Source: Chiloscyllium plagiosum (Eukaryota). From it: a DNA stretch of 58,043 bases. Shown in pieces: positions 4,036 through 56,604 of the stretch; the first letter of the stretch is position 1, and each line of letters opens with the position of its first letter. A program made the translations under genes and the position numbers. Below the pieces are notes generated by a model. It did no database searches. It was not told the origin of the DNA and worked only from the letters and a program-made list of their open reading frames with translations. Where the stretch lies: positions 40,103,600-40,161,642 of the forward strand of contig NC_057735.1 of NCBI RefSeq assembly GCF_004010195.1, read 5' to 3'.

Positions 4036-4986
4036 AAGCTAGATGAATTAGCTTACTTCTTTATACACCTGGCCTCTAGCCTCGGTTGGTTGCAGCAAGG
4101 TTACTTTACAAAGGACTCTTTCCTTTGTGGATGACCTTTCTCCCAGACCAAATGAAGTTATGTTTTAAAATTGCCAACTTAATCAGGCCTTTTAGGGCTA
4201 ACAAAGTGAGAGTTTATTCATTACAAAATGTGAGAAAAACTAATAATGCAACAGGTATACATGCTGATAAATAATGAGCAGTGAGACCAAGAAACACTGA
4301 AAGTTAACAGATACACTGGTCAAGCTAATAGTTAATTTGGGAATCTTGGCTTTGTATTTTGGTTCACAGTTCCTCTTGTTTCCTTTTGATGGTAGCTAGC
4401 TGGCAGCACTCAAAATGAGACAGTACATCTTTTGTCCAGTTTCCATTTGATTGGTCTGCTGGCTGGCTGGTTTCTAGCACTCAGACTAATCGAAGGTCTT
4501 TTCCTGTAAAGCAGGGGTGACTCGCGGATTGTTTTTCAAGCATGACCTTCACAACACACTAGAGCTTGAACACAGATTAATACCCAAGAGTATCTGAACT
4601 CACTGGCACATCTTCTTCCACTAGTGTACACAGATTGAGGTTCAAATGGCTTTTGACATTTGTCATTCTGCATTCCTGAAAGGGAAGGCATAGATCATAT
4701 TTCTCACCCAGTTTGCTGTCTTGTTGTCCATCATTTTCAGACTCTAAGAGAATTCCCATGAGATTTTCATGTGAATTTTGATACTAAGCATGTGAGGCAA
4801 TTTTTCAGGAAACTATGTCAAAACCGAGCTGAACCCTGTTCATAGCTAATGATAACACACTCAAGCATTCAGCGGTGGTCAATAACTAGTGACCTGAAGC
4901 AGAAATCTTGGCTTCAGAAATCCCTATATTTTGGTACTTTCAAGGCTTTATGAGGGAGTTTGTGACATGCTGGTACTTTCACTGGA

Positions 4987-5342
4987 AGATTCTGGATCAG
5001 TGGTGCTGGAAGAGCACAGCAATTCAGGCAGCATCCGACGAGCAGCAAAATCGACGTTTCGGGCAAAAGCCCTTCATCAGGAATAAAGGCAGAGAGCCTG
5101 AAGCGTGGAGAGATAAGCTAGAGGAGGGTGGGGGTGGGGAGAGATGCTACTCTCTCCCCACCCCCACCCTCCTCTAGCTTATCTCTCCACGCTTCAGGCT
5201 CTCTGCCTTTATTCCTGATGAAGGGCTTTTGCCCGAAACGTCGATTTTACTGCTCGTCGGATGCTGCCTGAATTGCTGTGCTCTTCCAGCACCACTGATC
5301 CAGAATCTGGTTTCCAGCATCTGCAGTCATTGTTTTTTACCT
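4987..5342. mobile_element. Penelope-like palindromic element with two hammerhead motifs
   Basis: 158-bp inverted arms 4987-5144/5151-5308 (1 mismatch, 6-nt loop); TSD CTTTCACTGGAAGA at 4976-4989 and 5343-5356. Confidence 0.85.
5209..5248 (+). ncRNA. Minimal type-I hammerhead ribozyme motif
   Basis: CUGAUGA (5215-5221), A, GGGC-UUUU-GCCC, GAAA (5235-5238), C, GUC (putative cleavage after 5242); mirror copy on the minus strand at about 5047-5086. Confidence 0.7.
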
Positions 5343-5404
5343 CTTTCACTGGAAGAGTCATCCCAAAAAGTCAGACCAATAATCTAGAGACAAAGATTCA
5401 AATC

Positions 5405-5910
5405 CTACCATGGCATCTGGTAAAATTGAAAGCTGGTTTTAGTGATGGTGCCTGTGAAACTACCATTAAAAACCTTACCAGTTCAGTAATGCTCGTCAGA
5501 ATAGGAAATCCGGTTGCTGGTCTGTCTGTGACTCCAGATCTGTAATGATGTGGTTGAATCTTAACTCTGCTTTTAAATGGTCTAGCACACCAATCAGGAG
5601 AAAGTGAGAACTGCAGATGCTGGAGATCAGAGTCGAGAGTGTGGTGCTGGAAAATCACAGCAGGTCAGGCAGTATCTGAGGAGCAGGAGAATCGATGTTT
5701 CGGGCATAAGCCCTACATCAAGAATCATTCCTAATGAAGGGCTTATGCTCGAAACATTGATTCTTCTGCTCCGCGAATGCTGCCTGATCTGCTGTCCTTT
5801 TCTAGCACCACACTCTCAACTCGAGCACACCAATCAGTTCAAGTGTCATTAGGGGATGTGCACATTAGCTGGCTTTGCAAGTGGCACCCAAATCGGATGT
5901 AAGAATAAAG
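5405..5910 (+). mobile_element. tRNA-derived SINE (same family as 13320-13650), split by a Penelope-like insertion
   Basis: Matches the body of 13320-13650 (tgtgactccag..aatgtggttga..ttaactgc; attagggatg) on both sides of 5598-5823. Confidence 0.65.
5598..5823. mobile_element. Penelope-like palindromic element, decayed hammerheads
   Basis: Inverted arms; TSD AGCACACCAATCAG at 5584-5597 and 5824-5837; mutated core CTAATGA...GAAAC. Confidence 0.8.
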
Positions 5911-6529
5911 GAAAAAACAGCTTTTTCATGTAATAGACCAGTTTTATGACTGGCCTAGATCATAAACCTGTGACAATAGCATTATGAAATCATTATTGTG
6001 TTGTTTGTGCCATCACTCATTATACCTTATTGTTAATAATAGCATATGTTAATGCAATCAGTCATCCAAGTTAATTAAAGTAGTTAGTCGCATAGTGACT
6101 TTTTGAATTGAGCTCATTTACATTCTTTTTGCATAGTGTCATGTAGATCATGTCACTGTCAATGATCATAATTCAGAACCGGTACAGCCAGTTTATCTGG
6201 GTCCAGTGATTCAGCTAAACATGAAGGAATGTTCAAGCAGTAAACAGAGACCGACTGGAACAGCAGCGTGGTATTCCTAGCTGCCACTTTTTAGAGGTAG
6301 AGTTCTGAACTCTCGATGGGTGTATACCTAGAGGTTTTATTCCTTGATCTTTGCCTCCAACTGCACAACCATTTAAATAACCCCTTTATTTGTGCCTAGA
6401 ATTTTAAAAAATAAACCATAGAAAATGAAAACAAAAACACGTTAATGCCTGCACATTTAATTTTCCTCACTGGTTGCACATTGCAGTATATAAGGATATC
6501 AAATTCTGCAAATTTCAGGACATTCCTAT

Positions 6530-6568
6530 TTAGATTAGATTAGATTAGATTAGATTACAGTGTGGAAA
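6530..6568 (-). repeat. (TTAGA)n microsatellite, probably an isolated SINE/LINE tail
   Basis: (ttaga)5 followed by ttacagtgtggaaa, closely matching the SINE tail at 33190-33217. Confidence 0.7.
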
Positions 6569-13170: not shown

Positions 13171-13319
13171 TACCCCCCTTGCCCCTCCTTGCGTAGTTGG
13201 ATTCTGACAACAGGCCCCAGAGAAACTGTCAGTCTGGGGTGAATGAACTCATGTCAGACAGGGTGACAGTGAATTCTTGAACAGTTCACAAAGAGCCTTG
13301 ATGCAGTAACATGTGGATT

Positions 13320-16831: not shown

Positions 16832-18781
16832 TGTCAATGATCATCTCCAACAAGAGACAATCTAACCACTATGCCTTGACAGGCCCTCTTTATATCCCAT
16901 TGAGGCAGCAGTGTTAACCATATTATAAAGAATATGATAACATACTTAGAAAACAAAGATCTGATTGGATAGCTTCAACATGGATTTATGAAAGGGAAAT
17001 CACATTTGACAAATCTGTTGTGGCATTTTGACGATGTTACTAGCAGAGTAGATAAGGGGATAGGGTGCATTTGAATTTTCAGAAGGCTCTTAATAATGTC
17101 CCATGCAAGATGTTTTATGAACAAAATTAGAGTACATAGGATGTAAGGTGATATGTTATCATATCATAGTATCATAGTAATCCTACATTTTGGAAGCAGG
17201 TCATTAAGCCCATCGAATCCACACAGCCCTTCAGAAGAGGATCCCACCCAGACCCACCCCCTCATCCCTGTAACCTTGTTGGCATGGATTGAGTATAGTT
17301 ACAATCTGGTCATTGTTTGGGAAAATCTATTAAACGTTACTGCTTTCCATTAACAAAAAGGGAAATCTGACTAAGTTCAAAAAAAGCTAAAAACATGATT
17401 GCGACAAATCACTTGACTATACTCTGCCAAATGATTTATAGAGAACTATCCTGACATGTGGAAACTCTCATCCAGGTGTTAACAAAATTCCTTGTTTTGG
17501 GAATGTAAATTAGTCATGGGCCAGAACAAGAATGAAGAATCACAGATGGAGGGGTGAACTATCTCAGAAATACTGATGCCTTAGATGGAAAATGACTTGG
17601 TCCTTTTTGGAGGTTACCTGATAATTATAAACATTTTAGCTTGAGTAAGATCTGCTGTAAAATGACTGGGTGGTTAAAAGTGCCACACCTGCAGAACCAG
17701 AAACTTGGAATCTTATTTCTGTAACAAAATCTGTTGTCCTGAGGAACCTTCTTGTTTATGGAAACAGCGCCTATTCAATTATAGAAATCATTGTAGCTAC
17801 TTAATCTGATTTCAAGCAGCAAGAATTCAAGCAACAGGCCGGATTAGTATCCCATATACACTTTTTGGATTTCCTTCTTAAAGTATTCTGATGCCTTATC
17901 TGTCTAGTTTTATTAGTGCCTATAATTTCTTGTTAATAACATTATTTCTTCACCCATAAGGGACCTTTAACAATACTTTGTAATAAAATAATCTAAATTT
18001 AACCTAAGTAAAGGTTTGACTGCCATTCTGCTTTAACTTAAATCATTACAAATTAAAAGGGGACAAGGTGATTTATAGTAATCCATAGCTCATAGATCAT
18101 GCTTTTTTTTAATAATTGTGACTCCTGATTTAAAATTATTTGCATCAAGAGTATCTGTTAACCAGTTTTTCGCAATTTGAGCCAGAGGGAGCTAGACTCC
18201 AGGAGACATAATGGTCCATAAAAGTTCAAGCAGTATTCCATCCACCAGTCAAGACTGTTACTTCCTTCCCGTTGGGCTAAAATAAAATATTTAAAAAATG
18301 TAGTTTGGGCGTTATACAAAAACAATAAATTGCATATCTAGACATCCTGAAAATAAAACTAATTCTTATTTCTATGAGAGGATCTAAACTTGATCCTCTG
18401 CTTAATATAAACACAAGATTTTAAAACATCGAAGATCAAAGTCATTTACCTTGATCTCTGAGAGTGTGAAAGTGTTTAGATTTAGTATGGACCTGAAATG
18501 GTTACCAATGAATCCCTTAATTAATGTAATCATTTAGATTGGGGTATTTATGTTTTTGTGTTGTATAGTGAAAAGGTGACGTGCAAGATGGTCATTCAAT
18601 CAATAATAGACCATCCCTAATCATTATTCCGTATTTGGTCCCATATTTGGTCATTATTCCTGTTTGGTCATGGTACTGCATCAAGTAAGATAATAAGAAT
18701 TGAGGCCTAACATTTCTTTATCAGATTGTGGTTTTACTTAGCTGAACTTGCATTGTACTTCTCATGCTAGTTGTCATCTCA

Positions 18782-18869
18782 GGTAGACAAGCAGGAGGCG
18801 AGAAAAACATAGCAAGCCAGGCAGCATCAGGAGGTGAAGAAGTCAACATTTCAGGTGTAACCCTTCTTC
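18782..18869 (-). mobile_element. Short Penelope-like terminal fragment
   Basis: TSD AGTTGTCATCTCA at 18769-18781 and 18870-18882; degenerate hammerhead CUGAAGA-A-GGG..CCU-GAAA on the minus strand. Confidence 0.65.
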
Positions 18870-19179
18870 AGTTGTCATCTCAAGCATCCCCAGAACAGTG
18901 TTTTTAAAGTGCGTTCAATCTTTCTCAGCTCTTCTACATTGTTGTGAAGGGAGTTCACCATTTTATGCCTGGTTATTTTTGTCCTTGGAAGAGTGCAGCT
19001 TGCTATAGGTTTTACTAAAAAGAAAAAGATTAATTTCTTTTATCTATCCCATATGTTTTAGCCCCTATTCCTACACAGTTGGTCATGATAATTAGTTAAT
19101 GATAAAAAAACTGAGGATAGGAATAATGCATCTTTCCTCATTTGGCAAGCTGTTCCTTGTAGTTTAGTTTATTACGACT

Positions 19180-19890: not shown

Positions 19891-20203
19891 TACCTTTACT
19901 GGCAACTGACTGAACTGGAATCTCACATTGGCCTGTTGAAAAATAATGTCCAAATATGAAACTTTAAAAGATGGTCAGATTTTAATATGTTCCCTTTGAT
20001 GTTAAGGTTAAAAAGGTAATTTTGGAATGAGGAATGGTGAAGTCATATGGAACTCTGCCTGGAGACAAGCCCATGTGATTTAACCTATGGATGACTTTCC
20101 TTCTGCTAATTGCTACTCCTACCAGTAGTCCCAGTATGTCATATTTATTTGTCTTGTGCCGTCCTCATACATCCAACTGTAGCTCACCTGAAACACCTCT
20201 GTG

Positions 20204-20674
20204 GCAAAATCAGAGTCTCAATTAGAGTGGTGCTGGAAAAGCACAGCAGGTCAGGCAGCATCCGAGGAGCAGGAAAATCGACGTTTCGGGCAAAAAGCCC
20301 TTCATCAGGACTGAAGGCAGGGAGCCTCCAGGGTGGAGAGACAAATGGGAGGGGGGTGGGAGTGGGGAGAAGGTAGCAAAGGGTACAGTAGGTGGATGGG
20401 GGTGGGGATGAATGTGATAGGTCAGAGAGGAGGGTGGAGTGGATAGGTGGAAAGGAAGATTGGCAGGTAGGACAGGTCATGAGGATGGTGCTGAGCTGAA
20501 AGGTTGGAACTGGGATAAGGTGGGTGGAGAGGAAATGAGGAAACTGGTGAAGTCCACCCTGGAGGCCCCTTGCGTTCAGTCTTGATGAAGGACTTTTGCC
20601 CGAAACATCAATTTTCCTGCTCGTCGGATGCTGCCTGACCTGCTGTGCTTTTCCAGCACCACTCTAACCTAGAC
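20204..20674 (-). mobile_element. Penelope-like element with inverted termini
   Basis: Arms about 20222-20315/20575-20667; TSD CCTGAAACACCTCTGTG at 20187-20203 and 20675-20691; intact hammerhead core on the minus strand at about 20276-20310; ORF-end remnant VDFTSF. Confidence 0.8.
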
Positions 20675-21089
20675 CCTGAAACACCTCTGTGACATCCATC
20701 ATTCAACTAAGTTCAGGTTGACCTCTCTTTCTGCTGCCCTCCATTTTGTCATCTTGAAAGTATCAGTAGTTTTTTCAACTCTGATCAAATGGCTAAAGTA
20801 TGGTTTGGAATACACTACTCTATGAAAGAGATCTGGTTAGAGTCCAAGAATTTTTCAATGAAGTTCATTATTTATATTATACTAGTTTAATACATTCTAG
20901 TTACACATGAGGTGAAGGCTGTTCCTGGTGTCTTTAGAGTCTCTACCATTATGTGGTCATGACGTAATAACTGACATAGCTTCCTATGTATATGTTCATG
21001 AGTAAGCCAATTACTTTACATCTCCCCTCCAAACTTTGTCTCTATTTAATCCAAATCATATATTGTACCCCCAAAGTTTCTGCTTTTAC

Positions 21090-23515: not shown

Positions 23516-24141
23516 TAACCTTTCCAATAATTTCACTATCTTTCCAATGTCATATGAAAGTCTCTGAGATTGTTGAGGATCTGCATTCTCCAAATTCACA
23601 CTTATACGCTGAAAGCTAGTCATTGTTTCATTCTCTCCTTGACCTTTTTCTTCCTGTCTCCTCCCCCTACAGTGGAAAGCTGTTTTTTAAGTTGTTTCAA
23701 CTTTTATCTGTGGTCTTGCCTTTGTCGGCATATTGACTTCTGTGGCTTTTGTCTTTAACTCTGTTCCTACTTAGCCACTTTTCAACAGATTCAGAAGTGT
23801 CAAATTATCATTCACCTAAGAGCTCTTCAAATCTTAGTAATAATTGTTGTACAAGTTAACGATTCTAACAGTATTAATGTTGGAGACTGCAATAAGCTCT
23901 ACCAATCTGATGATATCATACAGCCTAATGTGGGGAGAAGCCGAGTCTAGTTCAAGATCTCAATGGGGACAGATCTGTTATCAGTGTCTCCGAGCTAAAT
24001 GTGAGGTCTCAGCTGTTATTCTTCTCTTCAGATGTTAATGTTAATTTTAATTTTCATGTTTAATTAGCAAATGAAACTTGTACCTATTGACATCACCCAA
24101 CAATCTGCACCTTGTTAAGACAAGTGCGTTTCCTGATTAAG

Positions 24142-24916
24142 GAGAAAGTGCGGTCTGCAGACGCTGGAGATCAAAGCTGAAACTTTATTGCTGGAACAGC
24201 ACAGCAGGTCAGGCAGCATCTAGGGAACAGAAGATTCGACGTTTCGGGCACATGCCCTTCCTCAGGAATGAGCAGAGAGTGTTCAGCAGGAGAAGATAAA
24301 AGGTAGGGAGGAGGGACTTGGAGGAGGGGCGTTGGAAATGTGATAGGTGGAAAGAGGTCAAGGTGAGGGTGATAGGTCGGAGTAGGGTGGAGGCGGAGAG
24401 GTCAAGAAGAAGACTACAGGTCAGGAAGGCAGTGCCGGGCTGGAGGGATTCGGCTGAGACAAGGTGGGGGGAGGGGGGATGAAGAAACTGGTGAAGTCCA
24501 AGTTCATCCCCTGCGGTTGGAGGGATCCCAGTCGGAAGATAAGACGCTCCTCCTCCGACCGTCGCGTTGTTGTGGTTTGGCGGTGGATGAGTCCAATGAC
24601 CTGCATATCCTCGGTGGAGTGGGAGGGGGAGTTGAAATGCTGTGCTACAGGGTGATTGGGTTGGCCTTCCTGACCTGCAGTCTTCTTCTTGACCTCTCCG
24701 CCTCCATCCTACTCCGACCTATCACCCTCACCTTGACCTCTTTCCACCTATCACATTTCCAACGCCCCTCCTCCAAGTCCCTCCTCCCTACCTTTTATCT
24801 TCTCCTGCTGAACACTCTCTGCTCATTCCTGAGGAAGGGCATGTGCCCGAAACGTCGAATCTTCTGTTCCCTAGATGCTGCCTGACCTGCTGTGCTGTTC
24901 CAGCAATAAAGTTTCA
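24142..24916 (-). mobile_element. 5'-truncated Penelope-like retroelement: GIY-YIG C-terminus between inverted pLTR copies
   Basis: 255-bp arms 24176-24430/24664-24918 (2 mismatches); spacer ORF RRSEEERLIFRLGSLQPQGMNLDFTSF; TSD GCGTTTCCTGATTAAG at 24126-24141 and 24917-24932. Confidence 0.88.
24825..24860 (+). ncRNA. Minimal hammerhead ribozyme motif
   Basis: Stem I AUUC/GAAU, CUGAGGA, stem II GGGC-AUGU-GCCC, GAAAC, GUC (cleavage after 24856); mirror on the minus strand at 24234-24269. Confidence 0.75.
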
Positions 24917-40350: not shown

Positions 40351-41244
40351 TTCCTACTTCCTATTTGCTGACCTCCTGGTAATGCTTTCACTCTCACCTG
40401 CAATGGCCTCATTTTCTCCTTGTCTTCAGTCGATCTGTGAGATGTGATCTGGGGCTCAGTATTATTATTATTATTCTGTTACTTTTTAACCCATATTAAT
40501 AATTCTTAAAATTTTACTTATTTTTTATCTCCATTGTTTTGGTGTTAAATATTTTATCCTTTTTGGCACAGATGTGCTGATAATATGCAGTACAACCTAT
40601 TCAAATATTTTGGGAGGAGTGCAGCCTAACTCGGTGGACCCTTTTGGGGCTGTGCTGTGAGCAAACACACAAGCCACACTCTAATCCCCACATTAAATAT
40701 CAGAAGTAAACAGACAGAAAGCTTTCTCTGTGATTAAACTAATGCTGCAAAATGATCCCTACAACCTTGTGCATTAGTTGGGCACTAATGGAACAAATCC
40801 CCCACCACAACACTTGGCCGCAGTATAGACTCAAGCTCCCAGCGCCAGCATGGGCTCTACTCCTGACTTCCAGCCTCAGCATGGACTCAGACGTCTGGCC
40901 TCAATATGGACTTGACTCCAAACTCCCAGCCTCGAGGTGAACGTCTGGATTGAAAAGACTGCTATTCTGAACTCTTACTTCTTTAATTTTCTAATTTATT
41001 ACTGGACTTTTTTTTCTAAAATCTTTCCCCCCAAGAATTTGTACTTAACAATCTGTAATTAGGCACCTTGGTACTTAAGATGGCACTGTAAGTGGCAACT
41101 TGTGAACTTTCCACTGTACTCATGTGAGTACATGACAATAAAGCTAATTCGTCTTGTGTTTTTGTATTTCTTGCACACCATACACAAGGTCCTGCGGGTG
41201 GTGAATGTTCAAGCATGTTCCAACTGACAGAATCTCTCCTGGAG

Positions 41245-41452
41245 CAACAAAAACAGAAATTGCTGGAAAAAATCAGTAGGTCTGGCAGCATCTGTGGAGA
41301 GAAATCATTTAATTTTTCTGGATCAGTGACCCTTCCTCAGACCCAAAATATTAACTCTGATTTCTCTCCACAGTTGCTGCCAGGCTTGCTGAGCTTTTCC
41401 CGCAATTTCTGATTTTTTTGCTGATTTCCAGCATCTGCAGTTCTTTTGGTTC
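41245..41452. mobile_element. Older Penelope-like palindromic element
   Basis: Imperfect inverted arms, the same ttccagcatctgcag terminus, and a CUGAGGA remnant on the minus strand. Confidence 0.6.
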
Positions 41453-43454
41453 TCATAGTCTATAGAATTGTCTAGTACTGAACAAGGCCATTTGGTCCCT
41501 TTGTACCTGTGCTGGCCCCTGAGCTGTCCAATTAATCTCACTCCCCTTTTCTTTCCCCCTTAGCTCTACAAAGTTTACGTTTCAACGTTTTTGTAACAAG
41601 GCCTTTGGTGACAGAATTGCATCAAGTGCTAGTTTCTTGGCTGTATGAAGGAAGTGAGGGCTGTTTAGAGGTTGCAGAGGAGATTTACTTGAACAGTCCC
41701 TTGGATGAAAGCTTTTAGCTCCAAGGTCAGATTGGATTGTTTTCCTTGGTGAAAAGGAGATTGAGGGAAGATTCGATATAAGTGTACATGATGATTTAGA
41801 TAAGGAAACACTGTTGCCATGAGCTGATCGTACCAGAGTTAGGAGACTCATTTAAGGTTTGGGAAGGGGATGTCAAGGAGGACCCCTTAACATAATGAGT
41901 GGTAACAACCTAGAATCTGTTGCCCATGAGAGTAGTTGAAGCAGAGATAAGCAATGATTTAAAAAATATATTAAGTCACACTTGTGGAAAGTTAGTTTGC
42001 AGAGCTACAGGGATAGAAAGGTGGAATGGAGCTGACTGGATTGCTCTACGCGTACTCAGCATGAGCTAAATGGACTGAATGGCCTTTCCTGTGCCATAAT
42101 ACCTCTAAGACTCTGCAAGTGCAATTCCCTTTACAAAAATACTATTAAATCTCCTTCAAACACCTTTTCAGACATTGCATTCCAGATCACTACAACTGAT
42201 GTGTGTAAAAATAATTTCTCCTCATTTTGCCAATTATCTTAATTCTGTGAAAACTGGTTACAAACACCCCTCCCAATGGAAACAAACACTATTTACCAAC
42301 TCCATCTAAAACCTTCATGATTTTGAACACCTATTAAACTTACAATGTTCTTTGCTTTAAGGAGAACAATCTCAGTTTCTATAGGGTTATTGGAGAAAAT
42401 TTGCATTTTCCCCAATTCTCACTTGGATGTAGTTTAGTTTTGTATGTTACCAGGCTCTGGATGTGCTGGAATTGTATGTTAACAGCGACCAGAGTCATGT
42501 GAACACTAATGCTTCGAAAGGGCACTGTGTCCATCTATTTGTTGTTTTAAAAACAAACAAGACAGATCTGATAAGTTGGTCACACCTAGATCATCAAAAC
42601 TCATCTTGTCTCTTTGCAAATGATAACTAAGAGCACTTTCTGTTTTTATTTCAAACAATGTAAATATTATTTCGCCTTTTTAATGAATCACGATTTTCAG
42701 AATTTCGGGCATTTGAGTTGCAACAACAATGCATTCACATCTCATGAAGAAAAACTCACAGTTCAATGTTTGTGAATGATATTTATTTAACAAATCTGTA
42801 GTACGTAAATGACATGATGCAAGCTCTATTAAAATATAAGCAAGATTCCTTCATTCTTTACAATACTTTGAAGTATATTTTACAGGGGCGCTGTCTTCAA
42901 CCTTTGTTGACTGGCAAGTACAAAATCTTTATGATGTATAAGTCATGATGGCAGTGATTATTTTAGTTCTTCATTCATTTATAAAGAAAAATATTTTGAT
43001 AAGCTTGTAATTTCAAATGAGTCCTTTCTTTAAAGATCACAGCACTGCTAAATGGTTGGCTTTAATGCAAGAAATAAATGTTTTATTGATTTTTATCGTT
43101 GTCTGCTTACCAAAGTTCACCATGCCATAGTTAATAGTTGTTTAGTGAGGTATGAGTAGATAACAAGTATGAGTACAAATGAGAGGGAAGCCGGCCAACA
43201 GATAAATGTGGTTGGAGAAAATTATGTTCAGTCTGCTTGTTTTGCTTTCTTTTATTGTTGTTTAAAACAGTCTGATGATATACTTATCAAGGAAAGTACC
43301 TTAGAGGTAAAATCCTTTGAGACACAATACTCAGACAGAAGTAAGTATACCTGCCTCAGAACTGTTCCTGTTACAACATAAAGGAACTGAACGCTTGCAC
43401 TCACTCTATCATAAAAGTACTGGCAAAACATACAACCCATTCCAACCACACTGT

Positions 43455-43795
43455 GGGTGGCATGGTGGCTCAGTGGTTAGCACTGCTGTCTCACAGTGCC
43501 AAGGACTCAGGTTTGATTCCAGCTTTGGGAACTTCTGTGTGGAGTTTGCACATTCCCACTGTGTCTGCATGGGTTTCCTCTGGGTGCTCCAGTTTCCTCT
43601 CACAATCAAAAGATGTGCAGGTTAGTTGGATTGGCCATGCTAAATTGCCCATAGTGTTCAGGAATGTGTAGGTTAGGTGCATTAGTCAGGGGTAAATGCA
43701 GAGTGATAACGTAGGGGAATGGGTCGGAGTCGGTCACTCTTTGGAGGTTCAGTGTGGACTTGTTGAGCCTCTTTCTACTCTGAAGGGATTCTATG
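43455..43795 (+). mobile_element. Full-length HE1/V-SINE-like element
   Basis: A box 43466-43476, B box 43510-43520, core gtggagtttgcacattc..gggtttcctc, gattctatga tail. Confidence 0.85.
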
Positions 43796-46722: not shown

Positions 46723-49700
46723 GTAAGAGAGAGAGAGAGGCAACTGAGTGAAAGAAATACAGCTTGAAATATTATATTTTAGATAAATTACTGTCTTTTT
46801 TAAAATATATGTATATATGTCTTGGTATACAGCGTGAGATAAATCAGACCAACGGTTCCCGAGTGCTCAGGATAATCCCCCTCACTTTCTGCGATTTGTT
46901 TGTTCAGCTGTTTCCAAGATTTAACTAAAACCGATCGCTAATTTCAAAACTGGGACGATTTTGATAGTAATTGCGCGCCACCCACCGGAGTTACCTCGGG
47001 CGGTATTAGTTTCTGTGAAATCAACAAAGAGCCGCTTTTGCTGGGGATCTGAAACAAAAGCAGAGCTTGCTGGTGAACCTCAGCATGTCCGGCAGTGTCT
47101 CGAGAAAGAAGATCAAGAGTCATAGGCTCACCCGACTCGAAAAGAAGACTCTTGCTTCCTCTCTCTCGACCAAGATGCCCTAGATCTGCTGAATTTCTCC
47201 AGCAATTTCAGGCTTTTTTTTTCAAATTTTCCTGCCGATTTGCAAGTTTGTGACATAGCACCCAACCGAAAATGACCTGCCCACGGCTTCGTGGAAAGCC
47301 ATCATTGACCAGATGTTGGCTTTCAGGAAATAAAATGTTCAAAGTACATGTTTGTTTAGAATGGGATGTTGATGTAAGTATGAGCGATGTTTGCTAGTTA
47401 CTCCCAGCTTGACTCTGGAGAAAGGTTTTCCAAGGCTACACACCTGTTGAGCTGTGGGTTAGCCACTGGGTATTCTTTTTTTTTAATTTTTAAAAATTAA
47501 TATCTAGATTCCACCTCTTGGTTTCAACTGGATCCTCTGTTGTGGAGCAAGCAGCATGTCTTGGAGTGGATCAGTTACCATGTTGAGAAGCACAAGTATG
47601 ATGCCAATAATATCGACCTGTCCTTCTGTGATATGGATGGAAGCACTCTTCGGATACTATCCAAGAGCCAGTTGGTAGCTATCTTTGGTCCACTGGGCGA
47701 AGAACTGTACAAAAGCCATCAAGATTTAAGCAAAAACAGTAAGTAAAGCAACAATTGTATGATGACCATCTGCGAGGGAAAGTGTCTGTTTATCCGTGGG
47801 CATAGTCTCTGACCTTGTGGGGAAATGCCCAGTGTAAACACTGAACGGGACTGGGCGAGGGGAGGACAGTCATAACTAAGAAGCAACTGGTAGACTTCAC
47901 TCAGTGACTAGTGTGAGCTTGCCATCTGAGAGATATGGGGAGCCCGCAGTTGATTATTTTTGATCTAGAATGACTGTGGCGCTAGTGCTCAATGACTGTA
48001 TTGCCTTGTAAATAAACTGGAAACAAAAAGGAGTGGCTTTAGTGAGCGACTTCAAAAGTTAATTACCAACTCGCATGAACATTTTGGTTATTGAAATTTT
48101 ATTTAAAATTTATGAACTAAATAGCTGTGGTAAGGTTTTTTTTAAGGTGTCTGTTCTTCTGACCTAACAGTCTTGCAACTTATTTTTGATGTACAGTTTC
48201 CAAGATTAAAATATAGATTAACTTTCCTTTTCTGTTGGTGCCAGGTTTTGATTTAATGCTGCCTGATGACTTCAATGACATCCTTTTGCCCAGCATCCTG
48301 CCAGAAGACAGTAGCGACTACAAGTTTCTGGACCCTGCAATTTGTAAGTTAATTTTAAAGCCTTTGTTTTTAAAGGATTCTCCCAACTGAATTCCCAGCC
48401 TCCATTGTCTTCAGTTCAGTGTTGCATGAGTATTACTGGCTGCACTTGAGCTCTGAGCTAATGTAAATGGGAACATTTTATCCTGGGACTTCATGGTTTG
48501 GTGCCAGCTTTTTGTATACAGGAGAGACCAAGCCCCTTGGTCACTTAAAGAAAGGAACATAATGTGAGGTTCTTGTAGAACAAAGGTTCATGGTGCGGGA
48601 GGAAATGTGAGCTGAGTAAGAGATGGAGCTTATAGTTCCTAACTATTACACAAACAAAATAATGTGTATAAGCCTGGGAGCCCATTGGACACACTGGCTT
48701 TTTTTCTCTTTTGCTAACATTAGTGAGCAGAAGCGAAATCTACATACCATGGGCAAGTGTAGCAAATCTTGAGTTTTAAAAGCTCAGTGAAGTTTGGGAG
48801 GTTTCGAGGGTGCAGATTTGAAGCTTAAATCCTGCCAGTTTCTCATAAAAAGTGTGCTAGGAAGCACAGTCACAGAATTGCTGACTTCAATATACATTGA
48901 CCAAGTCAAATTCATTTGCATTGGATTGCCAGCAGGAGACAGATTTAGGAATGAGTGGCACCTTTGCTAGAGATTTGCTTATCTCTGGCAATAAAAATTA
49001 AATTAACCACCATTTGAGATGAGAGCAAATGATATTTGACCCCTCTCTTATCTGCCAACTGCTGTGTCCTTGGCTGAATGACTGTCGGGGAATTTCCACA
49101 CTCGCTTCTTAATCTTGAGGTGATGACTATATTTTACTTTTTTGGATAGGTGACTTTTACTCTGCTGTTTGTGTAAGCAACTCTTTGTATTTTTGCTCTT
49201 AGCCTGGAATGAATTAGAGTCACCAGACCATTGGAAAACCTTGCCTGGTTTCCCACCCAGTGACCCTGGCTATGAATCTGCACCCACCTCTCCATACAGT
49301 GTTGATGACTCCAATCCAGGTGAGTATTCTGTGACAGAGTTCCAACACAAGTATATGGTAATCTGAGCCTCCTATAAACACTAAGGTGCTCATGGTTGAT
49401 CGATGGGCAAATGACTGATAACTCAATATTAAAATTAAAATCTGTACATTCTTTGAAAGCATTTTGGAGTACAACAATCTCACCAGTTAGTTAAAAAGCC
49501 ACCAATTTTACTGAAGTTCTTTAATTTACAATAAACTGCCAAAAGCCATTGCGTCATATACTAAATTTCTTTTTAAATGAATTGAGTATGTTTACCTGTA
49601 TGAATCAATATAGGAGCTGAAAAGTGTGGCACTCGAATAGCACAGTCGGTCAGGCAGCATCCGAGGAGGAGGAGAATCAACATTTCCTGCTGTGCTTTTC

Positions 49701-52700
49701 CAGTTCCACACTTTTCGACTCTGATCTCCAGCATCTGCAGTCCCCACTTTCTCCTGAATCAATATAGCAGTTAACTTTGACTTGTTTAATTGCTTTTTTT
49801 TTGAAAAGGCACACCTATCCCCTCAGTGGAAATGGGGGGAAGTTGGCAAGAAGAGTGAATAACTAGGAAAATTCTCCCAGGGAACTTTCTGATCACTTAA
49901 GCAATTAACTGCTGAATGCGAAAGTCCATGGATAACCTTTGATCTCTTCAGTGTGCCTACAGTTTGAGTCCCTATGAATTAGCATATATTTGAGGGCCTC
50001 AACTCACCTTGACCTGATATACCTGCTGCCTTATCACAAGAGAAGTGGTTGCTTCCCAACTGGGAAACCTAGGCAACTTGTCTTTTGGTCTGGAGAGTGG
50101 AGGTCTCCATTTCTCCCAATCAAGGGCAGGAATGGAGTGGCAAATGGGTGGTTTCTGAAAGTCACCCTCTTCTTTTTACTTGGGAGATCTGAAAGAAAGG
50201 AGGCTTTTTGCCACTTCACACCCTAAATCCTGGATGTCTAGGCCCCAGCCATGATCTAGCCAGCAGCTTCTAGTGGGGTGGGTCTTCGGTAACTTGATTC
50301 CATTTGACACCAGTCAGCTTTAAAGTGGCTGAATTTGGATTATCTCACCGGTCCGGGTAGAGGGTCACCTGACTCTGAAGATTTCCAGTCTCTACTCTTG
50401 GTGCATGGAGCACTAAATCCTAGTGCTAGCCTTGAGTTCACGCATTGCACTACATGACCAGAATTCATCTCCCAGTCTGGATTGTTTGTTTATTGTGACC
50501 ATTATCAGTCCTGGTGTTTGATTAACCAAGATGGTATCTGCAGTTAATCTAAAAATTGTTAGGAGATCATTATGTGCTTGCAATGGAACACTTCCATACC
50601 CCACATGTTAATCTGTTTACCAGCTTCCACCTTCTCTCTCAGGCAACTGAATGGGGTGCTCAGTTGAATTGTTGCTGTATTTGGGGGTAGGAAGAGTGAT
50701 TTTTAGGAAGAGTTTAAAAGCTCAGTCATTTCCACAATGCCTTTCTTCAGTGGTTGTAATGTTACAAAACAGAATTGGATCTTTGGAGATTTCAAATCAT
50801 TTAATTGAAAATAGTTCATCACACTTCACTTTAAAAGCTTTTTTATCTCTTAGCTAATAAATGTTGCACAGTTTAACACTAATGTGTTATGTTGTTGGTG
50901 TTTTGCAGGATCCCAAGCTCCTAACTCTCCAGACTCCGGTGGAAGTGAATCAGATTTTGATCCCTCCATAACACATACTCAATACGCAACTCAAAATGGT
51001 AAACATTTCTGCTGTTTGCTTTCAGGACAATAAGTGAATACAGCTATTTTTGCATTTACAGTTCACTTTATGATCTTTGGGTAGAGGGGTAGAGTTGAGG
51101 GATTTGAAAACAATATATACTTTGTTCAATTGACTATTCAAACTGCTTTTCTTTCTGATGTAGGCCGTCAGCCATAGTAGGAATGGTCTGACAATAGTCT
51201 GTTTAAATACCCACCCTCTGTGACTTGCAGGGTATTTGCTCTTTCAAAACTATCATTTTTGTTACAATTACTGTAAGGTATCCTCTCAGGTTAGTGACAG
51301 CCAAAGGATTGTGACTATGTTCATCAATGAGTTGGTGTTTAGTTTTGCTGATATGAAGCTCTACTAATATGAAGCCAACTTTCATCAGCTATTCTAAGTT
51401 AGCCCTGAATCCAGATCCTAGAAGACTCTGTACTAACCCACTGCCCCAATAAATGTTTATTAATGTAAATTTATGTCACATTCATTGCTTAAATAGTCCT
51501 GACAAAAATGTTATACTGCTTAAGTGTTTGAGTAGTTGGCCAATATCCTTGACAGAATCTTTATTTTTCTTATTAATGCATCATTTGCTCGAGATTGAGA
51601 ACTATTTAATTATTTTGATAATTAATATGAAATGATCCTTTCACTACTACTTGTAAAGCCACTATCCAAGCAATTCTAACATGTATTTCAGTTTGACCAG
51701 AAGATAATCCAGAGCTGATTTTTCTTATTCTTTTCACTTTTATTACTTCAGAAGGATTTCCTAAAATTTTAAACGGTGATTCCAATCCTCCGAAACGAGG
51801 CAGAGGAAGACCAAGAAAATTTGGCAGAGAAGAAAAGAACTTTGTAGAAACCAAGAAAAACAAACACTGTAAGCGATTCTAAACTCAAAAATCTATTTAA
51901 TCAAATGTGAGGCCTTTGAAAGAGAGGTCATAGAGTCATACAACACAGAAATAGACCCTTCGGTCCAACTAGTCCATGGCAAAACTGATCCCAAGCTAAA
52001 CCAGTTTTGCCTGCTCTTGGCCCATAACCCTCCAAACCTTTCCTATTCATGTACTTATCCAAATGTCTTTTTAAATGTAGATGATTGTCTGTCTTTAAGA
52101 GAGTAAATTTTTCAAAACTATGGAGAAAGGTTGGGAGAATGAGTGCACTGACTGACAATGTCACAGCCAAATGATTACTTTGTACTCAAGCCAATCTCTG
52201 AAATAGAAACATATTAAATATCCTCATTCAAAAGGCAACCATTTTAAAATGGGATCTTCCATCAGTTTCTCTTCAAATGAGAGAAATGTAGTTTCCTGAA
52301 TATTGATTTATTTCAACCTGTTGGACTCCAACCTAAGCAGCTGTTTACCTCTATCAAAGCTGTACCTTAATTATTAACCACACAGACACTGTCCCTTCTG
52401 TTTGTTTTTTTCTGATTTGCATCACATTTGTTCCGATCATTGTCTTACTTCATTGTCACCCATAAACTAGATGAACTGGTTATTCTGTTTGCGTGAAACA
52501 GCCAATGCAGAAGGGCATATGTCTAATTGCAACCAATGTCCTTCAAAATAATTCAGTGCAAATAGTGACGTTTTAGTTTTTGGAGCAGAAAATTTGTTAT
52601 TTTGGTTAAGCTGATAGGACTTGAATCCTGTTCAAAAGCAAAACACTTCTGGATGAGATAAATCCAGACACTGTAAGATTTACTTAGTATTTCCAACATT

Positions 52701-53820
52701 ATCTGTGAAGAGAAAAATATTGTTGTTTGAGGTCAATGACCTTCAGTCTGACTTTGAGACTCTGTACTAAAGTATTCCAAATTGGAGGTGCTGTAATAAG
52801 ATTTTATGTGACGATGGAGTTTTATTTTGATGAAATTACTTGCATTTTGTTTTTGTCCATTGGTGACTAGATCAGACTGTTAGATATTCAATCTTTATTC
52901 TTAAAACCCTCATTTCAGGAGTTGTTGTGGATTTGTTGTGCCTGTATATTTAACTGCTTTCAACCTTCAACTCTCTGTATTGTGTTTTACAGCCCCACGT
53001 GGCACTCACCTCTGGGAGTTCATTAGGGATATCCTCCTTCATCCAGAGATCAACAATGGCCTTTTGAAATGGGAAGACCGGTCAGAAGGAATCTTTAAGT
53101 TTCTAAAGTCTGAGGCTGTCGCACAACTTTGGGGTGAAAAGAAAAAGAACAGCAGCATGACCTATGAAAAGCTCAGCAGAGCCATGAGGTAAGCACATCT
53201 TCCCAGTTTAGCTTTGAACTTGGTGTCACTGGGACCTATTGCATAGCCTTAGCTTCCTATTCCATAACCTTAGTTTATCTCAAGCATAGTTGTCACCTTG
53301 AAACACTTTACTTCATATGAAGAAGGCACTCTTGCAGTGTTATCAAATAGAGGTTTAGTCTTTTCCTCAGTAGCCTTGACAAAATGGTGAATATGTATCC
53401 AATACCTGCATTATGCTACTTGGAGGGACTGTGACATCTCTCCTACTGCTTGCACCAGTGCAATCACTATCTGCCATCTTGGTTGATGAATGATTTTGAG
53501 GAGTGAGATTTTGCAATGGAATCCAATCCGTATAGATCCGTGACAAGAGAGCATTCACTTTGATGGTAATTATATGGTATACAATTTAATTATTATCCAT
53601 TTTGGTTTGACAGAAGATTTAAGGGCTAGTCAAACACTCTGTTGCTGAGCAACTTCCTTAATAGCCATGAATAGAAATGCAGGAATGTAATTCACTCAAC
53701 TTGTTCCCATTCTCTTACAGGTACTATTACAAACGCGAAATCCTGGAGCGAGTGGATGGGAGGAGGCTGGTCTACAAATTTGGAAAGAATTCGAGTGGTT
53801 GGAGAATTGGAGATGCATGA
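46584..53820 (+). CDS. ELF3: ETS-related transcription factor ELF3 (ESE-1/ESX); spliced CDS join(46584..46722,47508..47738,48245..48343,49203..49319,50909..50998,51752..51868,52993..53188,53721..53820), 362 aa
   Basis: All introns are GT-AG and exon phases join without stops (139+231+99+117+90+117+196+100=1089 nt). N-terminus [24 protein letters not shown] resembles human MAATCEISNIFSNYFSAMYSSED. Also present: PNT domain, DSGGS SAR region, AT-hook and ESE-type ETS domain. The AT-hook distinguishes ELF3 from EHF/ELF5. Confidence 0.95.
47508..47738 (+). CDS. ELF3: ELF3 exon, Pointed/SAM domain
   Basis: Encodes [45 protein letters not shown]...FGPLGEELY; tatctag| acceptor, A|gtaagt donor. Confidence 0.95.
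48245..48343 (+). CDS. ELF3: ELF3 exon, acidic transactivation region
   Basis: Pyrimidine tract then ccag|GT; encodes [33 protein letters not shown]; T|gtaagt donor; 99 nt, phase 1-1. Confidence 0.85.
49203..49319 (+). CDS. ELF3: ELF3 exon, Ser/Pro-rich linker
   Basis: tttttgctcttag|CC acceptor; encodes [39 protein letters not shown]; G|gtgagt donor. Confidence 0.85.
49614..49754. mobile_element. Internally deleted Penelope-like element in an ELF3 intron
   Basis: TSD TGAATCAATATAG at 49601-49613 and 49755-49767; same termini as the 55886 element. Confidence 0.75.
50909..50998 (+). CDS. ELF3: ELF3 exon, SAR region
   Basis: ttttgcag|GA acceptor; [19 protein letters not shown] resembles human SDSGGSDVDLDP; G|gtaaac donor. 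Confidence 0.9.
51752..51868 (+). CDS. ELF3: ELF3 exon, AT-hook/NLS
   Basis: ttcag|AA acceptor; encodes [39 protein letters not shown]; T|gtaagc donor. Confidence 0.92.
52993..53188 (+). CDS. ELF3: ELF3 exon, ETS domain N-part
   Basis: Encodes [65 protein letters not shown]; AG|gtaagc donor. Confidence 0.97.
53721..53820 (+). CDS. ELF3: ELF3 last coding exon, ETS domain C-part
   Basis: tctcttacag|G acceptor; encodes [32 protein letters not shown] then TGA. Confidence 0.97.
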
Positions 53821-54584
53821 TCAGATTTTCTTTCTTCTAATATTAAAATACATTTGCTAAAAGTACAGATGTTTGCTGGCAAACAAATTCCATCAGTTGG
53901 AGTGAGATGATCAAGCCTGCAATGGACTTCTAACTTGCTCCATTTTGGAGATGTGCTCCATGGGCATTAAGTAATGAATTTTTGAGGAGGTGGAAGCATT
54001 TTTTTCATTTTTAATTCTATACATTTTATCAGACTCCAGCCTTTCAAGGCCAGAAGTGTGTGTCATAAAGGTGGCACTTGAAATAGTAAGCCTATATTTG
54101 GGCCAAAGTAGGTTATTAAACCAATTTATACTGTTATGGATAATGCTACAAGCTATTTGATTGAAACTCACTGAGTGTACAGCAAATATTTCAGATGCAG
54201 TGGGTGAATATGAACCGCTCCAAGAAGCAATCTCTTTGTTCAATACTTCAATGGTGTGTACATATGGACAATGTGGCTGCATTGCAGGACTTGTTTTCTT
54301 GCTTATGCATGGAGGTGTGTTTGCAATAAGGCTATCAATCTCTAAGTCTGAGTATAAATGTCTATTGATGTTCCTTCACGGCCATTTGAAATGTTGGAAA
54401 CTTATTCAGCTGGACTGGTGCAATTTCCACGGGAATGTGACTGTACATATGAGTTACGAAGACACAAGGGTGAAATGCCCTAAATAGATTGAATGGATTT
54501 TGTAAGAAATTTTAAGTCTCTAAACATTATAATTATGGATCTGTATGTACTATATTTTCCTATGGAATACATTGATATTTTGCA

Positions 54585-54590
54585 AATAAA
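54585..54590 (+). terminator. Candidate ELF3 polyadenylation signal
   Basis: AATAAA about 765 nt after the stop codon, in AT-rich UTR-like sequence with upstream TGTA motifs. Confidence 0.55.
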
Positions 54591-55885
54591 AACAAATTTT
54601 AAAATCCCAACCTTTCTGAATGGTCAACATGAGTGATAATTAGGTCAACATTGTATCGTGAGAGTGTACATTAATACTTCTGCACTCAGCAATATTTCTA
54701 CTTGGAATGGGAATTCTGTCAGTGTTGCAAGTACTTTGGCTTTATGCCCTGTGTGTCCCAAGTTACCCACTTAAGAAATAGCCATGTTGGAGGAAGAGAA
54801 AAGCCAAATTTCCGATGATTTCTTAAATCGCCATCTCTCAAATGTAATGGGTTAACAAGATTGATTATGGATGACATTTTTTTCAAATACAACTTTTTAA
54901 AACAAGTTTATTTTGAAAAGCTTGTGTTCACCAACACATTCTTGTTGTAGAAATCAGTGTAGAAGCAAATGTGATAGGGATTGAAGAGGGCAGTAATGTG
55001 CATCACATTATTTTGTGGAAAATAAGTGTTGGCAGTGGATCTAGGGCAACACCTCTTTAGAATGATTTGGTTGCGCTCTTCCGTCATAAGTAAAGTGAAT
55101 AATGAGTATCAGCAGAGTTTTGACAGCTCAAACTAACCCAAGATAGTTGATACGTCTAACATCATGTCAATTTTGAGTTTAATATTGAAGTAGACCCATG
55201 GAGACACTGTTGTAACTGAAAGGGTACAAAGACAATAAGTAATGCGATTCCACTTTGAGTACAATAGGTGCACCAGATTTCTTATCTGGTAATAACATGC
55301 ATGCACATATTACTATGAGACTAATGAATACTTGTGAGAGGTTGCTAGGTTAAAAATCTCCTCCAGGGAGTCAGGTAATATAAGCCAGGAGAAAGAAGCA
55401 TAAATTGTTTACAACTGTCATCTTAAACTCCTCAATGTGGTTAGCCTTTGGACTGCCAGCAAATCTCGGCATGTTCCAAACTCCTTGGTTTGTGATGGAA
55501 CAATAGCAATGTTATAGCACAATGAAGCCACGAAGATATCAGCCTTACCTTTATTCCTGAAATATTTACACCATTTCATGAAGGACTCTCCTCAGCTTCT
55601 CCTTTCACCTGAGATGTGGTAACCCTTAGGTTAAATCACGACCAGTCATCTCACCTTAATGATAAAACAGCCCTATAGTCTGGGAGGACAATGGTGACTT
55701 TACCTTTATGATTTATTTAATTTTGCTATTTATATAATAAAAAGTAATAAAATTGGTGGCTTCTCCAGCTTTTCCATTTTTTTTGTATCATTTTAATTTT
55801 GCTTTTTTTTCTATCGTCCATGTTTGAAGGATCATTTATGTCTCTTCCTCTATCTCCTGGGATTCATTGTCCTCTGTAAAATTGT

Positions 55886-56094
55886 AAATGTGTTGCTGGA
55901 AAAGCGCAGCAGGTCAGGCAGCATCCAAGGAGCAGGAGAATCGACGTTTCGGGCATGAGCCCTTCTTCATTCCTGAAGAAGGGTTCATGCCCGAAAGGTC
56001 GATTCTCCTGCTCCTTGGATGCTGCCTGACCTGCTGCGCTTTTCCAGCAACACATTTTCAGCTCTGATCTCCAGCATCTGCAGTCCTCACTTTC
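55886..56094. mobile_element. Penelope-like palindromic element
   Basis: 84-bp arms 55886-55969/55974-56057; TSD TCCTCTGTAAA(A/G)TTGT at 55870-55885 and 56095-56110; the fold-back centre lies in the hammerhead core. Confidence 0.82.
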
Positions 56095-56604
56095 TCCTCT
56101 GTAAAGTTGTGTCAACCAAAAGTAAAAATCCTAGGTTTGGCTTTCTCTCTAGATTCAGTTGCCTATAGTTTGACACAGTTTAAATTTCAGACATGGCCAA
56201 GTCCTAGCTAGTTCTAAATATCAAGTGGACCAAGGACACCACCTTCACCTGATTTCAGGAAGTGCAGGAACTTGGCATTAGTGCAGTAAAGGCAAAAGAC
56301 TACTTAAATCAGAGAGTCTATTACATGAAATACATTTTACCAGAATGATGCTAATGATAAAGGATTCTGTTATGGTGACCGATGAGAGAAGATTATTCTC
56401 TTGAGAGAATAGAGAAGGAAGAGAGTCAGTAAACAGAGGAGTAAACATAGCCAAACAATCCAAAAAATTAGATGAGGAGAGGTTACCTTTTATACAGTAT
56501 GTTCTTATGATTCAAACTGCACTGCCTTGTGGTAGCAAATTCAATTGTAATTTGCAAAAATGAAATTGGATAAATACGTAAAACAGAGGAATTTAAGGAT
56601 AGTA

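Follow-up and report, generated by a model that had tools for sequence, protein, structure and literature searches.

A 58,043-nucleotide stretch of the Chiloscyllium plagiosum genome (contig NC_057735.1; the whole analysed stretch is called the window below) contains dispersed inverted repeats with hammerhead ribozyme motifs on both strands, which raises the question of what these units are, how their mirror arms arise and whether the motifs are active in the inserted copies. An earlier note, made from the sequence alone, had read them as a population of Penelope-like ribozyme hairpins. Our analysis indicates that the loci are very probably 5'-truncated insertions of an endonuclease-bearing (EN+) Penelope-like element (PLE), likely of the Neptune clade. 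The mirror arm was likely made at each insertion, the copies are likely inactive, and the motif is predicted to be sequestered by base pairing. The fold-back pattern is real but ordinary.

The window holds ten insertions of one element family

All of the roughly ten related insertions proposed before were located. They comprise 18 arms of one PLE family at 10 loci and account for 4.8% of the window. A profile derived from the arms recovered all 18 at E ≤ 8e-7, with no further match below E 0.2 in the window, and the reversed window gave a single match (E 7.5); as the profile was made from the same arms, this result speaks for completeness and not for significance. Eight of the ten loci are head-to-head fold-backs, in agreement with the inverted pseudo-LTR (pLTR) arrangement claimed for most of them, and the loci at 18782 and 25255 are single arms. 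Target site duplications (TSDs) of 13-17 nt, each different in sequence, bound seven of the ten loci, so that the length range given earlier stands and the count rises from six to seven. Six of them are exact (14, 14, 13, 17, 16 and 13 nt), and the seventh, at 55886, has 16 nt with one mismatch. In a random-placement control, an exact repeat of at least 13 nt occurred in 2 of 1938 cases.

Fold-back 4987 (4976..5356; TSDs 4976-4989 and 5343-5356, 14 nt) has a 6-nt centre between an arm at 4987-5144, with the element sense on the minus strand, and an arm at 5146-5342, with the sense on the plus strand and a 34-37-nt tail. Fold-back 24142 (24126..24932; TSDs 24126-24141 and 24917-24932, 16 nt) consists of a left arm at 24142-24663 (sense on the minus strand, tail of 34-38 nt) and a tailless right arm from 24664. 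At fold-back 20204 (20187..20691; TSDs 20187-20203 and 20675-20691, 17 nt), the left arm of about 357 nt, which bears the tail, reaches up to the last ORF codons, and the right arm starts at 20553. The remaining TSD-bounded loci are fold-back 5598 (5584..5837; TSDs 5584-5597 and 5824-5837, 14 nt; tail on the left arm), fold-back 49614 within an intron of an ELF3-like gene (49601..49767; TSDs 49601-49613 and 49755-49767, 13 nt; right-arm tail of 33 nt), fold-back 55886 (55870..56110; TSDs 55870-55885 and 56095-56110; right-arm tail of 37-41 nt) and the tailless single arm 18782 of a divergent subfamily (18769..18882, minus strand; TSDs 18769-18781 and 18870-18882, 13 nt). No TSD was found at the old single arm 25255 (25252..25354, plus strand), the old fold-back 41245 (41242..41455, tail on the right arm) or the very old fold-back 47040 (47035..47233).

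Arms of the same locus are far closer to each other (157/158 identical positions at 4987, 255/258 at 24142, and a further value of 82/84) than are tail arms taken from separate young loci, which agree at 78-88%. The near-identity at 4987 and 24142 bears out the view that the population is partly young.

A GIY-YIG remnant points to an endonuclease-bearing PLE

The left arm of 24142 encodes 62 residues (24478..24663, minus strand) that correspond to the C-terminal part of a GIY-YIG endonuclease and match the C-terminus of shark proteins with reverse transcriptase (RT) and GIY-YIG, which now backs the Penelope-like identity with protein evidence. The best matches are Chiloscyllium and Rhincodon proteins (identities of 79, 73 and 62%, with E values from 7e-18 to 4e-15), and a wide profile search returned 480 proteins at E ≤ 0.001. 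A Pfam search with the remnant itself gave no match below E 0.25. Its homologues have RT and GIY-YIG matches, with GIY-YIG passing the Pfam threshold in one protein out of 12 and falling short of it in five more. The close homologues P0004 and P0005, rather than the window itself, carry a CX4CXXC linker, which is partial in P0003; a CX2-5CXXC zinc-finger-like linker between RT and endonuclease is a feature of Neptune, common also to Nematis (PMC8557442). An RT domain is absent from the window, and contigs from the sequencing data, which extend beyond the arm end towards the ORF side (85 and 102 over the stretch ends), contain no full element, so that RT and clade are deduced from the homologues. 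Taken together, the element is very probably an endonuclease-bearing PLE, and likely of the Neptune clade as judged by the homologues' linker. The features expected of EN+ PLEs are an ORF with RT and C-terminal GIY-YIG, present here through the homologues with the last 62 residues in the window, a 5'-truncated copy with an adjacent inverted copy (8/10 loci), and a TSD of variable length around the whole unit (7/10).

Inverted repeats flanked by TSDs could also be MITEs of a DNA transposon whose long TIRs contain a hammerhead-like word by chance, and a MITE with a fixed short TSD was the outcome that the earlier note had set against its own reading. The TSDs observed here vary from 13 to 17 nt, the ends are asymmetric, the centres differ and one arm runs into the GIY-YIG ORF remnant. 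The remnant and the variable TSDs refute a MITE identity, which we regard as practically out of the question.

The hammerhead motif decays in inserted copies and is predicted to be paired away

Five of the 18 arms contain a motif that agrees with the minimal type I hammerhead consensus of PLEs as given in the supplement of PMC4209133 (CUGANGAH...GAAAN-palindrome-NUH, G10.1-C11.1, an unpaired base before helix II); none occurred in any of 100 shuffles. The intact motifs lie at 5053..5080 (minus strand) and 5215..5242 (plus strand), both with loop UUUU, at 20280..20308 (minus strand; loop UUUUU), and at 24238..24265 (minus strand; predicted cut after 24238) and 24829..24856 (plus strand), both with loop AUGU. 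Hence, only 4987 and 24142 among the eight fold-backs have an intact motif on both strands. In eight arms the motif is decayed or clipped, and in five it is mostly or wholly missing. The core is mutated in the right arm of 20204 and in both arms of 5598 and decayed in 18782, the motif is decayed in 25255 and the left arm of 41245, and no hammerhead was recognisable at 47040; 49614 lacks the CUGA box in both arms, and at 55886 C3 is absent in the left arm and C15.2 changed in the right. All five stem-II loops listed before (UUUU, UUUUU, AUGU, UUAU and UCAU) are present. The proposed minimal pLTR hammerhead with an ACGU stem III likewise gains support: shared with the published PLE motif are CUGANGAH, the extra base before helix II, G10.1-C11.1, GAAA-C-G-U-C, the palindromic ACGU and a weak helix I, whereas helix II is here at the short end, with 4 bp (PMC4209133). 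Hammerheads paired on opposite strands at distances of about 100-700 bp have already been reported, as have solo motifs of truncated PLEs, also for Neptune PLEs of fish. The portion of the published alignment examined has no row for a shark, and the word does not occur in supplementary file 2 (PMC4209133).

An Rfam scan of the window yielded no hammerhead at E ≤ 1, and all 27 matches it returned were below the gathering score. Among these sub-threshold matches are miRNA families at 5095-5200 (locus 4987), which reflect the perfect hairpin there. Regarding covariation, 86% of 51 cells in helices I and II are paired compared to 9-58% when the helices are slid, and two pairs have changed on both sides, but among 500 shuffles 198-238 equal these values (8 loci in the window). 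Between the arms of a locus, seven core differences arose after insertion compared to 3.7 expected in a stratified count, which omits four terminal mismatches at 20204 and one at 24142 as boundary effects. A Fisher test that compared core and flank over all loci together (7/69 versus 26/638, P 0.03) was set aside, as the loci are of unequal age and length. The core is thus not spared from decay in inserted copies. Where subfamilies differ from one another, the changes avoid the core, a pattern in keeping with selection that acts on source elements. The proposed selection on RNA structure is partly supported in this way, but the covariation stays within its shuffle control and the inserted copies decay through the core.

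For each of the five intact motifs, the predicted pairing probability of helix II is 0.77-0.99 when the motif is folded by itself and 0.00 when the complete fold-back is folded. In read-through RNA, the motif is predicted to be locked in a long hairpin, fully paired to the antisense arm. The second hammerhead is the mirror image of the first, and with each predicted to pair with its antisense arm, the idea of ribozyme hairpins as functional units loses its footing. Most likely, the motif works only in RNA made from a full-length source element, with help of the element protein or as a dimer. RNA reads map to both strands, and 89% of them continue into unlike sequence. No pile-up of RNA ends was seen in one fragmented poly(A) single-cell run, a data type that is weak for ends and no test of cleavage. 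RNA editing of the hairpins showed no excess: A>G plus T>C make up 39 of 99 places in the RNA run, compared to 26 of 68 in a DNA run.

The earlier note had also considered retrozyme-like mobilisation, in which the fold-backs would be non-autonomous elements that undergo dimer cleavage and spread through circular RNA. The two youngest fold-backs do hold intact motifs, and retrozymes derive from PLE pLTRs and are present in the single chondrichthyan sampled (bioRxiv 10.64898/2026.07.22.740005). Like animal non-LTR retrozymes, the units are short, non-coding, hammerhead-bearing and PLE-related; in contrast, those retrozymes form tandem direct repeats with typically canonical type I hammerheads and are expressed as circles (PMC7229834; bioRxiv 10.64898/2026.07.22.740005), whereas the units here are single or inverted, with minimal motifs and TSDs. 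None of the four tandem arrays in the window lies in these loci, and the centres differ in all seven loci read, which argues against a unit copied as a whole with the same boundaries. As the two motifs of a fold-back lie on opposite strands, they cannot pair as a dimer in cis. Moreover, helix II is predicted to be lost in the fold-back, the best co-folds reach -31.8 and -24.6 kcal/mol compared to -17.7 and -18.9 kcal/mol for the dimeric hammerhead fold (helix I being left out of the forced fold), and the motif is not intact in 13 of the 18 arms. With a different centre at every locus read and no tandem units, nothing supports a mobile retrozyme-like hairpin, and we consider this origin highly improbable.

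Tails and junctions bear on how the mirror arm is made

In five of the six TSD-bounded fold-backs, one arm bears an additional tail of 32-41 nt; at 20204 the tail has merely 9-11 nt. The sequence ccagcatctgcag, previously taken for a terminus common to most insertions, occurs exactly at five of the ten loci and with one mismatch at 24142, and as it is confined to one arm and sits about 15 nt in from the end, it belongs to the tail and is not a shared terminus. Tail ends overlap the TSD by 2, 2, 1, 4 and 0 nt (P 0.002-0.03), and tailless ends overlap it at chance level (5 nt in six ends). At the inversion points, the arms overlap by 5 (20204), 3 (55886, centre TTCC at 55970-55973), 1, 1, 1, 1-2 and 0 nt, a sum of 12-13 compared to 5.2 expected (P ~0.01-0.02). 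The overlap counts come from 5-7 sites and in part from upstream sequence deduced by comparison with other copies. The sequencing-run data showed no read or contig across a fold-back centre.

These observations suggest the following order of events. The GIY-YIG endonuclease would cut both target strands 13-17 nt apart, as the TSDs imply, and reverse transcription would start on uncleaved element RNA from the tail end, aided by a target match of 1-4 nt. Copying evidently stops early, at a place specific to the locus. The 3' end of the cDNA may then fold back on a few matching bases and extend on itself, with the second arm resolved about 34 nt short, leaving a one-sided tail. The hammerhead comes with the pLTR and decays once the copy is inserted; in read-through RNA it would follow its own antisense copy. 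Within this scheme we lean slightly towards self-priming by snap-back with a short-resolved second arm. Plain snap-back of a tail-primed cDNA fits four of seven loci, since at 49614, 41245 and 5598 the tailless arm extends further 5' than the tail arm (by about 41, 14 and 1 nt) and a later deletion at the centre would be needed.

The main alternative for this step is a second cDNA primed at the opposite nick: a dimeric protein of the same element would use tail and tailless initiation sites at two staggered nicks, and the two cDNAs would be joined head to head. The anole PLE protein, a predicted dimer, does cut and extend both strands, from two start sites bracketing the tail (PMC11167929). 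Two cDNAs would also explain 49614, 41245 and 5598, as well as the arms of 20204, which differ in loop length (5 versus 4 U) and at a position where 4987 agrees with one of the two. However, target overlap at the tailless ends is not in excess, and the young arms share locus-specific variants almost perfectly, so that both cDNAs would need one source. The overlaps of 5 and 3 nt are those predicted by self-priming, although microhomology end-joining would also give them. On balance, we consider two separately primed cDNAs rather unlikely.

Arm starts cluster near the hammerhead core

At four of the ten loci the arms start between -7 and +2 of C3, namely at 5598 (both arms, the centre near 5726 lying 5 nt upstream of the core), 18782 (5' end at CUGA), 41245 (left arm, beginning at CUGA) and 55886 (both arms); none of the arms examined starts at the cut site. 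This clustering is not predicted by random truncation. A possible, if unlikely, explanation is that short copies derive from a pLTR-only transcript that starts just upstream of the core and spreads in trans in the manner of a SINE, with insertion still producing the fold-back. Read depth falls from 343 to 86 across 24233-24301, with a loose end at 24269 (115 reads), as such a start would produce; yet the loose letters resemble what lies upstream in the 4987/20204 subfamily, and subfamily divergence therefore confounds the signal. Furthermore, 4987, 20204 and 24142 extend 65-400 nt further upstream, two of them into the ORF, and a predicted hairpin at the spot where arms start could stop or fold back RT without any short transcript. 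It is likewise doubtful that the hammerhead region sets the 5' boundary of the copied RNA instead of a cut site, with a short pLTR-only RNA, begun a few bases ahead of the CUGA box, retroposed in trans and a small hairpin at this boundary allowing the cDNA to prime its mirror arm. If true, the thousands of young fold-backs would be a natural record of PLE priming and second-strand synthesis, with the tail end target-primed and the tailless end not.

Discussion

Every structural feature of these loci is already in print for PLEs. Insertion units of EN+ PLEs consist of a 5'-truncated copy and an adjacent inverted copy, and one end of the unit bears a tail of 30-40 bp (Craig et al. 2021, PMC8557442; Arkhipova et al. 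2013, PMC3846280). Head-to-head truncated arms, the one-sided tail, a TSD around the unit, the C-terminal GIY-YIG and palindromic junctions, there read as self-priming, are common to both. The TSDs of 13-17 nt differ from the 8-10 nt of Adineta, most units here are without ORF, and the local density is high. In Poseidon_Ac of Anolis carolinensis, uncleaved RNA is the substrate, the ribozyme needs protein, and the ORF begins inside the hammerhead (Frangieh et al. 2024, PMC11167929). The pLTR hammerhead, two 3' ends bracketing the tail, an uncleaved motif kept in the copies and a lack of RNA ends at the cut site recur here; that element belongs to the Poseidon clade, whereas the homologues found here have the zinc-finger linker. 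The whale shark genome contains Penelope (PMC8455134). A literature search returned no paper joining Penelope retrotransposon, Neptune and shark, or Penelope, elasmobranch and hammerhead ribozyme; the family may already be catalogued in Dfam or Repbase.

As found, the loci matter little, as their features are known and, in these copies, the mirror arm is predicted to silence the ribozyme. For annotation they are a hazard, since fold-back units can be mistaken for MITEs or, as the sub-threshold matches at 4987 illustrate, for miRNA hairpins. How PLEs make their inverted arms and tails is still open in the published work (PMC8557442, PMC11167929), and where young fold-backs bounded by TSDs are very numerous in one genome, counting them could separate self-priming from two-primer models.

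A family of Penelope-like fold-backs in the window

All ten insertions named in the earlier note (4987, 5598, 18782, 20204, 24142, 25255, 41245, 47040, 49614 and 55886, after their approximate start positions) were found in the window sequence. Jointly they account for 4.8% of the window (2778 nt) and comprise 18 arms, i.e. truncated copies of a Penelope-like element (PLE); a profile built from these arms yielded no further copy below E 0.2 in the window. Eight of the ten loci are head-to-head fold-backs, and 18782 and 25255 are single arms. Target-site duplications (TSDs) have the previously stated length of 13-17 nt, although they occur at seven of the ten loci (six exact, one with a single mismatch) and not at six. 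As a chance control, an exact repeat of that length occurred in 2 of 1938 random placements. The 13-mer ccagcatctgcag, proposed as the common terminus, is exact at five of the ten loci but is present in one arm only, about 15 nt internal to the arm end.

The Penelope-like identity was borne out by locus 24142, whose long arm encodes 62 residues on the minus strand. The best of 12 protein matches were two proteins of Chiloscyllium punctatum, at 79 and 73% identity, and one of Rhincodon typus at 62%; these matches also point to a carpet shark as the host. The matched shark proteins hold a reverse transcriptase (RT) region, a CX4CXXC linker and a GIY-YIG domain, the latter scoring above the Pfam cut-off in one of the 12 proteins and below it in five more. 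The remnant represents the end of the endonuclease, and the last codons of the open reading frame (ORF) are also kept at 20204. Since a CX4CXXC-type linker is given as a mark of Neptune and Nematis in PMC8557442, and the vertebrate PLEs named in a bioRxiv survey are Neptune and Poseidon, the family likely belongs to Neptune. A MITE was ruled out by the variable TSD length, the asymmetric ends and the ORF remnant.

Contigs matching one arm together with its flank numbered 16,748 and 19,134 in two sequencing runs; these figures do not represent copy numbers, but the family is abundant in the genome. In each of these runs, one contig bridges the left flank of 24142 and its tail. All features of this kind of element have been described before; the literature searched, which left out Dfam, Repbase and most subscription journals, contained no paper on the shark family.

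Neighboring features

The 49614 insertion lies inside an intron of an ELF3-like ETS gene on the plus strand, between the exon encoding the PNT domain (about 47501-47743 or 47520-47741) and that encoding the ETS domain (about 52905-53189 or 52993-53190), both with best PDB matches to ELF3. Locus 47040 precedes the PNT exon by about 290 nt. A decayed LINE, presumably of the CR1/L2 type, occupies 20980-23420; its stretch 22098-22442 matches an RT (Pfam RVT_1, E 8e-14). Related LINE 3' ends recur at several places across the window (direct repeat families D6, D8 and D13). A direct repeat of 174 nt occurs at 15190-15363 and, 1471 nt away, at 16661-16834; the two copies are 97% identical and may be the termini of another element. 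At 10724-12028, direct repeats nested in one another (D9, D10) surround disrupted reading frames, an arrangement that resembles a partially tandem, decayed end of a retroelement. Runs of N at 33381-33675 (295 nt) and 34650-34779 (130 nt) interrupt SINE-like repeats that have relatives at 43562-43650 and 56668-56756.

One-sided tails, inversion points and possible snap-back self-priming

In five of the six TSD-bounded fold-backs, one arm outreaches its partner at the outer end by 32-41 nt; in the sixth, 20204, the excess is 9-11 nt. This one-sided piece corresponds to the 30-40 bp tail that, according to PMC8557442 and PMC3846280, PLE insertions with an inverted truncated copy carry at one end; PMC11167929 links this tail to two sites at which reverse transcription starts. 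The fold-back centres, the inversion points between the arms, were all different at the seven loci read. Within young loci the arms are nearly identical (157/158, 255/258 and 82/84), whereas tail arms compared between the five younger loci show 78-88% similarity. Therefore, the mirror arm and its partner were copied from one source, most simply at insertion.

The TSDs imply that the target would be cut in a staggered fashion, 13-17 nt apart. Tail ends have 2, 2, 1, 4 and 0 nt in common with the TSD (P 0.002-0.03), while tailless ends share 5 nt over six sites, which is chance level. This excess at the tail ends suggests that the tail end was primed on the target. A loose end at 24140, observed in 70 reads, supports the 3' end of the family. 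At the inversion points of seven loci, the overlaps total 12-13 nt compared to 5.2 expected (P 0.01-0.02; these and the end counts are small numbers, and some upstream bases were inferred from other copies). The overlap at 20204 is 5 nt, and the centre of 55886 is the element's own TCA-N4-TGA hairpin. The overlaps favour formation of the mirror arm by snap-back self-priming, which was raised earlier for palindromic junctions, there on an antisense template (PMC3846280). However, the tailless arm extends further upstream at 49614 and 41245, and by about one base at 5598. These three loci speak against plain snap-back; they call for either a subsequent deletion or a second cDNA with a priming event of its own. 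The two arms of 20204-20674 have stem-II loops of different length and also disagree at one site, where the right arm is like the 4987 subfamily; all three core and stem changes are in that arm. This could be ordinary decay or the result of two templates.

The fold-back arrangement is predicted to disfavor hammerhead cleavage

The motif, a minimal hammerhead (min-HHR), consists of CUGANGA, an additional A, a 4-bp helix II with G-C closing, GAAA and C-G-U-C; it has no helix III loop, and helix I comprises 3-4 pairs. It matches the metazoan min-HHR consensus as given in PMC4209133. As previously stated, most arms carry the motif or a decayed version (five of 18 intact, eight decayed or clipped), but it is largely absent from five. 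An Rfam scan did not detect it. At four of the ten loci, arms start between -7 and +2 of C3, the C of the CUGA box, and none of the arms starts at the hammerhead cut site. The clustered starts may arise from transcription beginning there, from RT halting at a local hairpin, or because the loci were picked by the motif.

In a head-to-head unit, the antisense copy is always transcribed ahead of the sense motif. The predicted pairing probability of helix II is 0.77-0.99 in the isolated motif versus 0.00 in the whole unit for all five intact motifs. As the two motifs lie on opposite strands, they do not provide the tandem dimer that min-HHRs need, and even two free copies are predicted to prefer other co-folds. 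PMC4209133 describes no activity for single min-HHRs and low activity for dimers; in PMC11167929, cleavage occurred with protein only and was dispensable for insertion. The proposal that some fold-backs move as retrozyme-like units fails, being contradicted by the lack of tandem units at the loci, by boundaries that are not in common and centres that differ, and by the folding results.

In the RNA sequencing run X21, matched to the 24142 arm and its flank, 1273 reads fell on the arm in both orientations, and 89% of them continue into unlike sequence. No place with many RNA ends was seen on the arm in this run, which is weak evidence because the run sampled fragmented poly(A) RNA from single cells. 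In the sense orientation of the element (window minus), the 24142 subfamily has an AATAAA at 24189-24184, in one of seven arms checked, and 65 RNA reads stop at 24178 with T-rich loose letters following (agreement 0.56). This may mean that the element is polyadenylated at its tailless end; alternatively, A-rich genomic DNA may have served for priming.

Selection on the motif

Among the 40 best-supported of 100 variable places, three fall into the 28-nt motif (two in loop II, one at position 7) and 13 into the 96 nt downstream, in reads matched at 86% likeness, which favours conserved stretches. The between-subfamily changes in the motif sit at tolerated positions, in line with the selection on RNA structure previously put forward; helix II has C-G as its fourth pair in young copies and U-A in divergent ones. 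However, formal covariation of the motif gave no excess over shuffles, and arm-to-arm differences in the core amounted to 7 versus 3.7 expected (sd 1.7; five terminal mismatches omitted). The core is thus unprotected after insertion. The evidence on selection therefore points two ways and fits selection on the source elements together with neutral decay of their copies.
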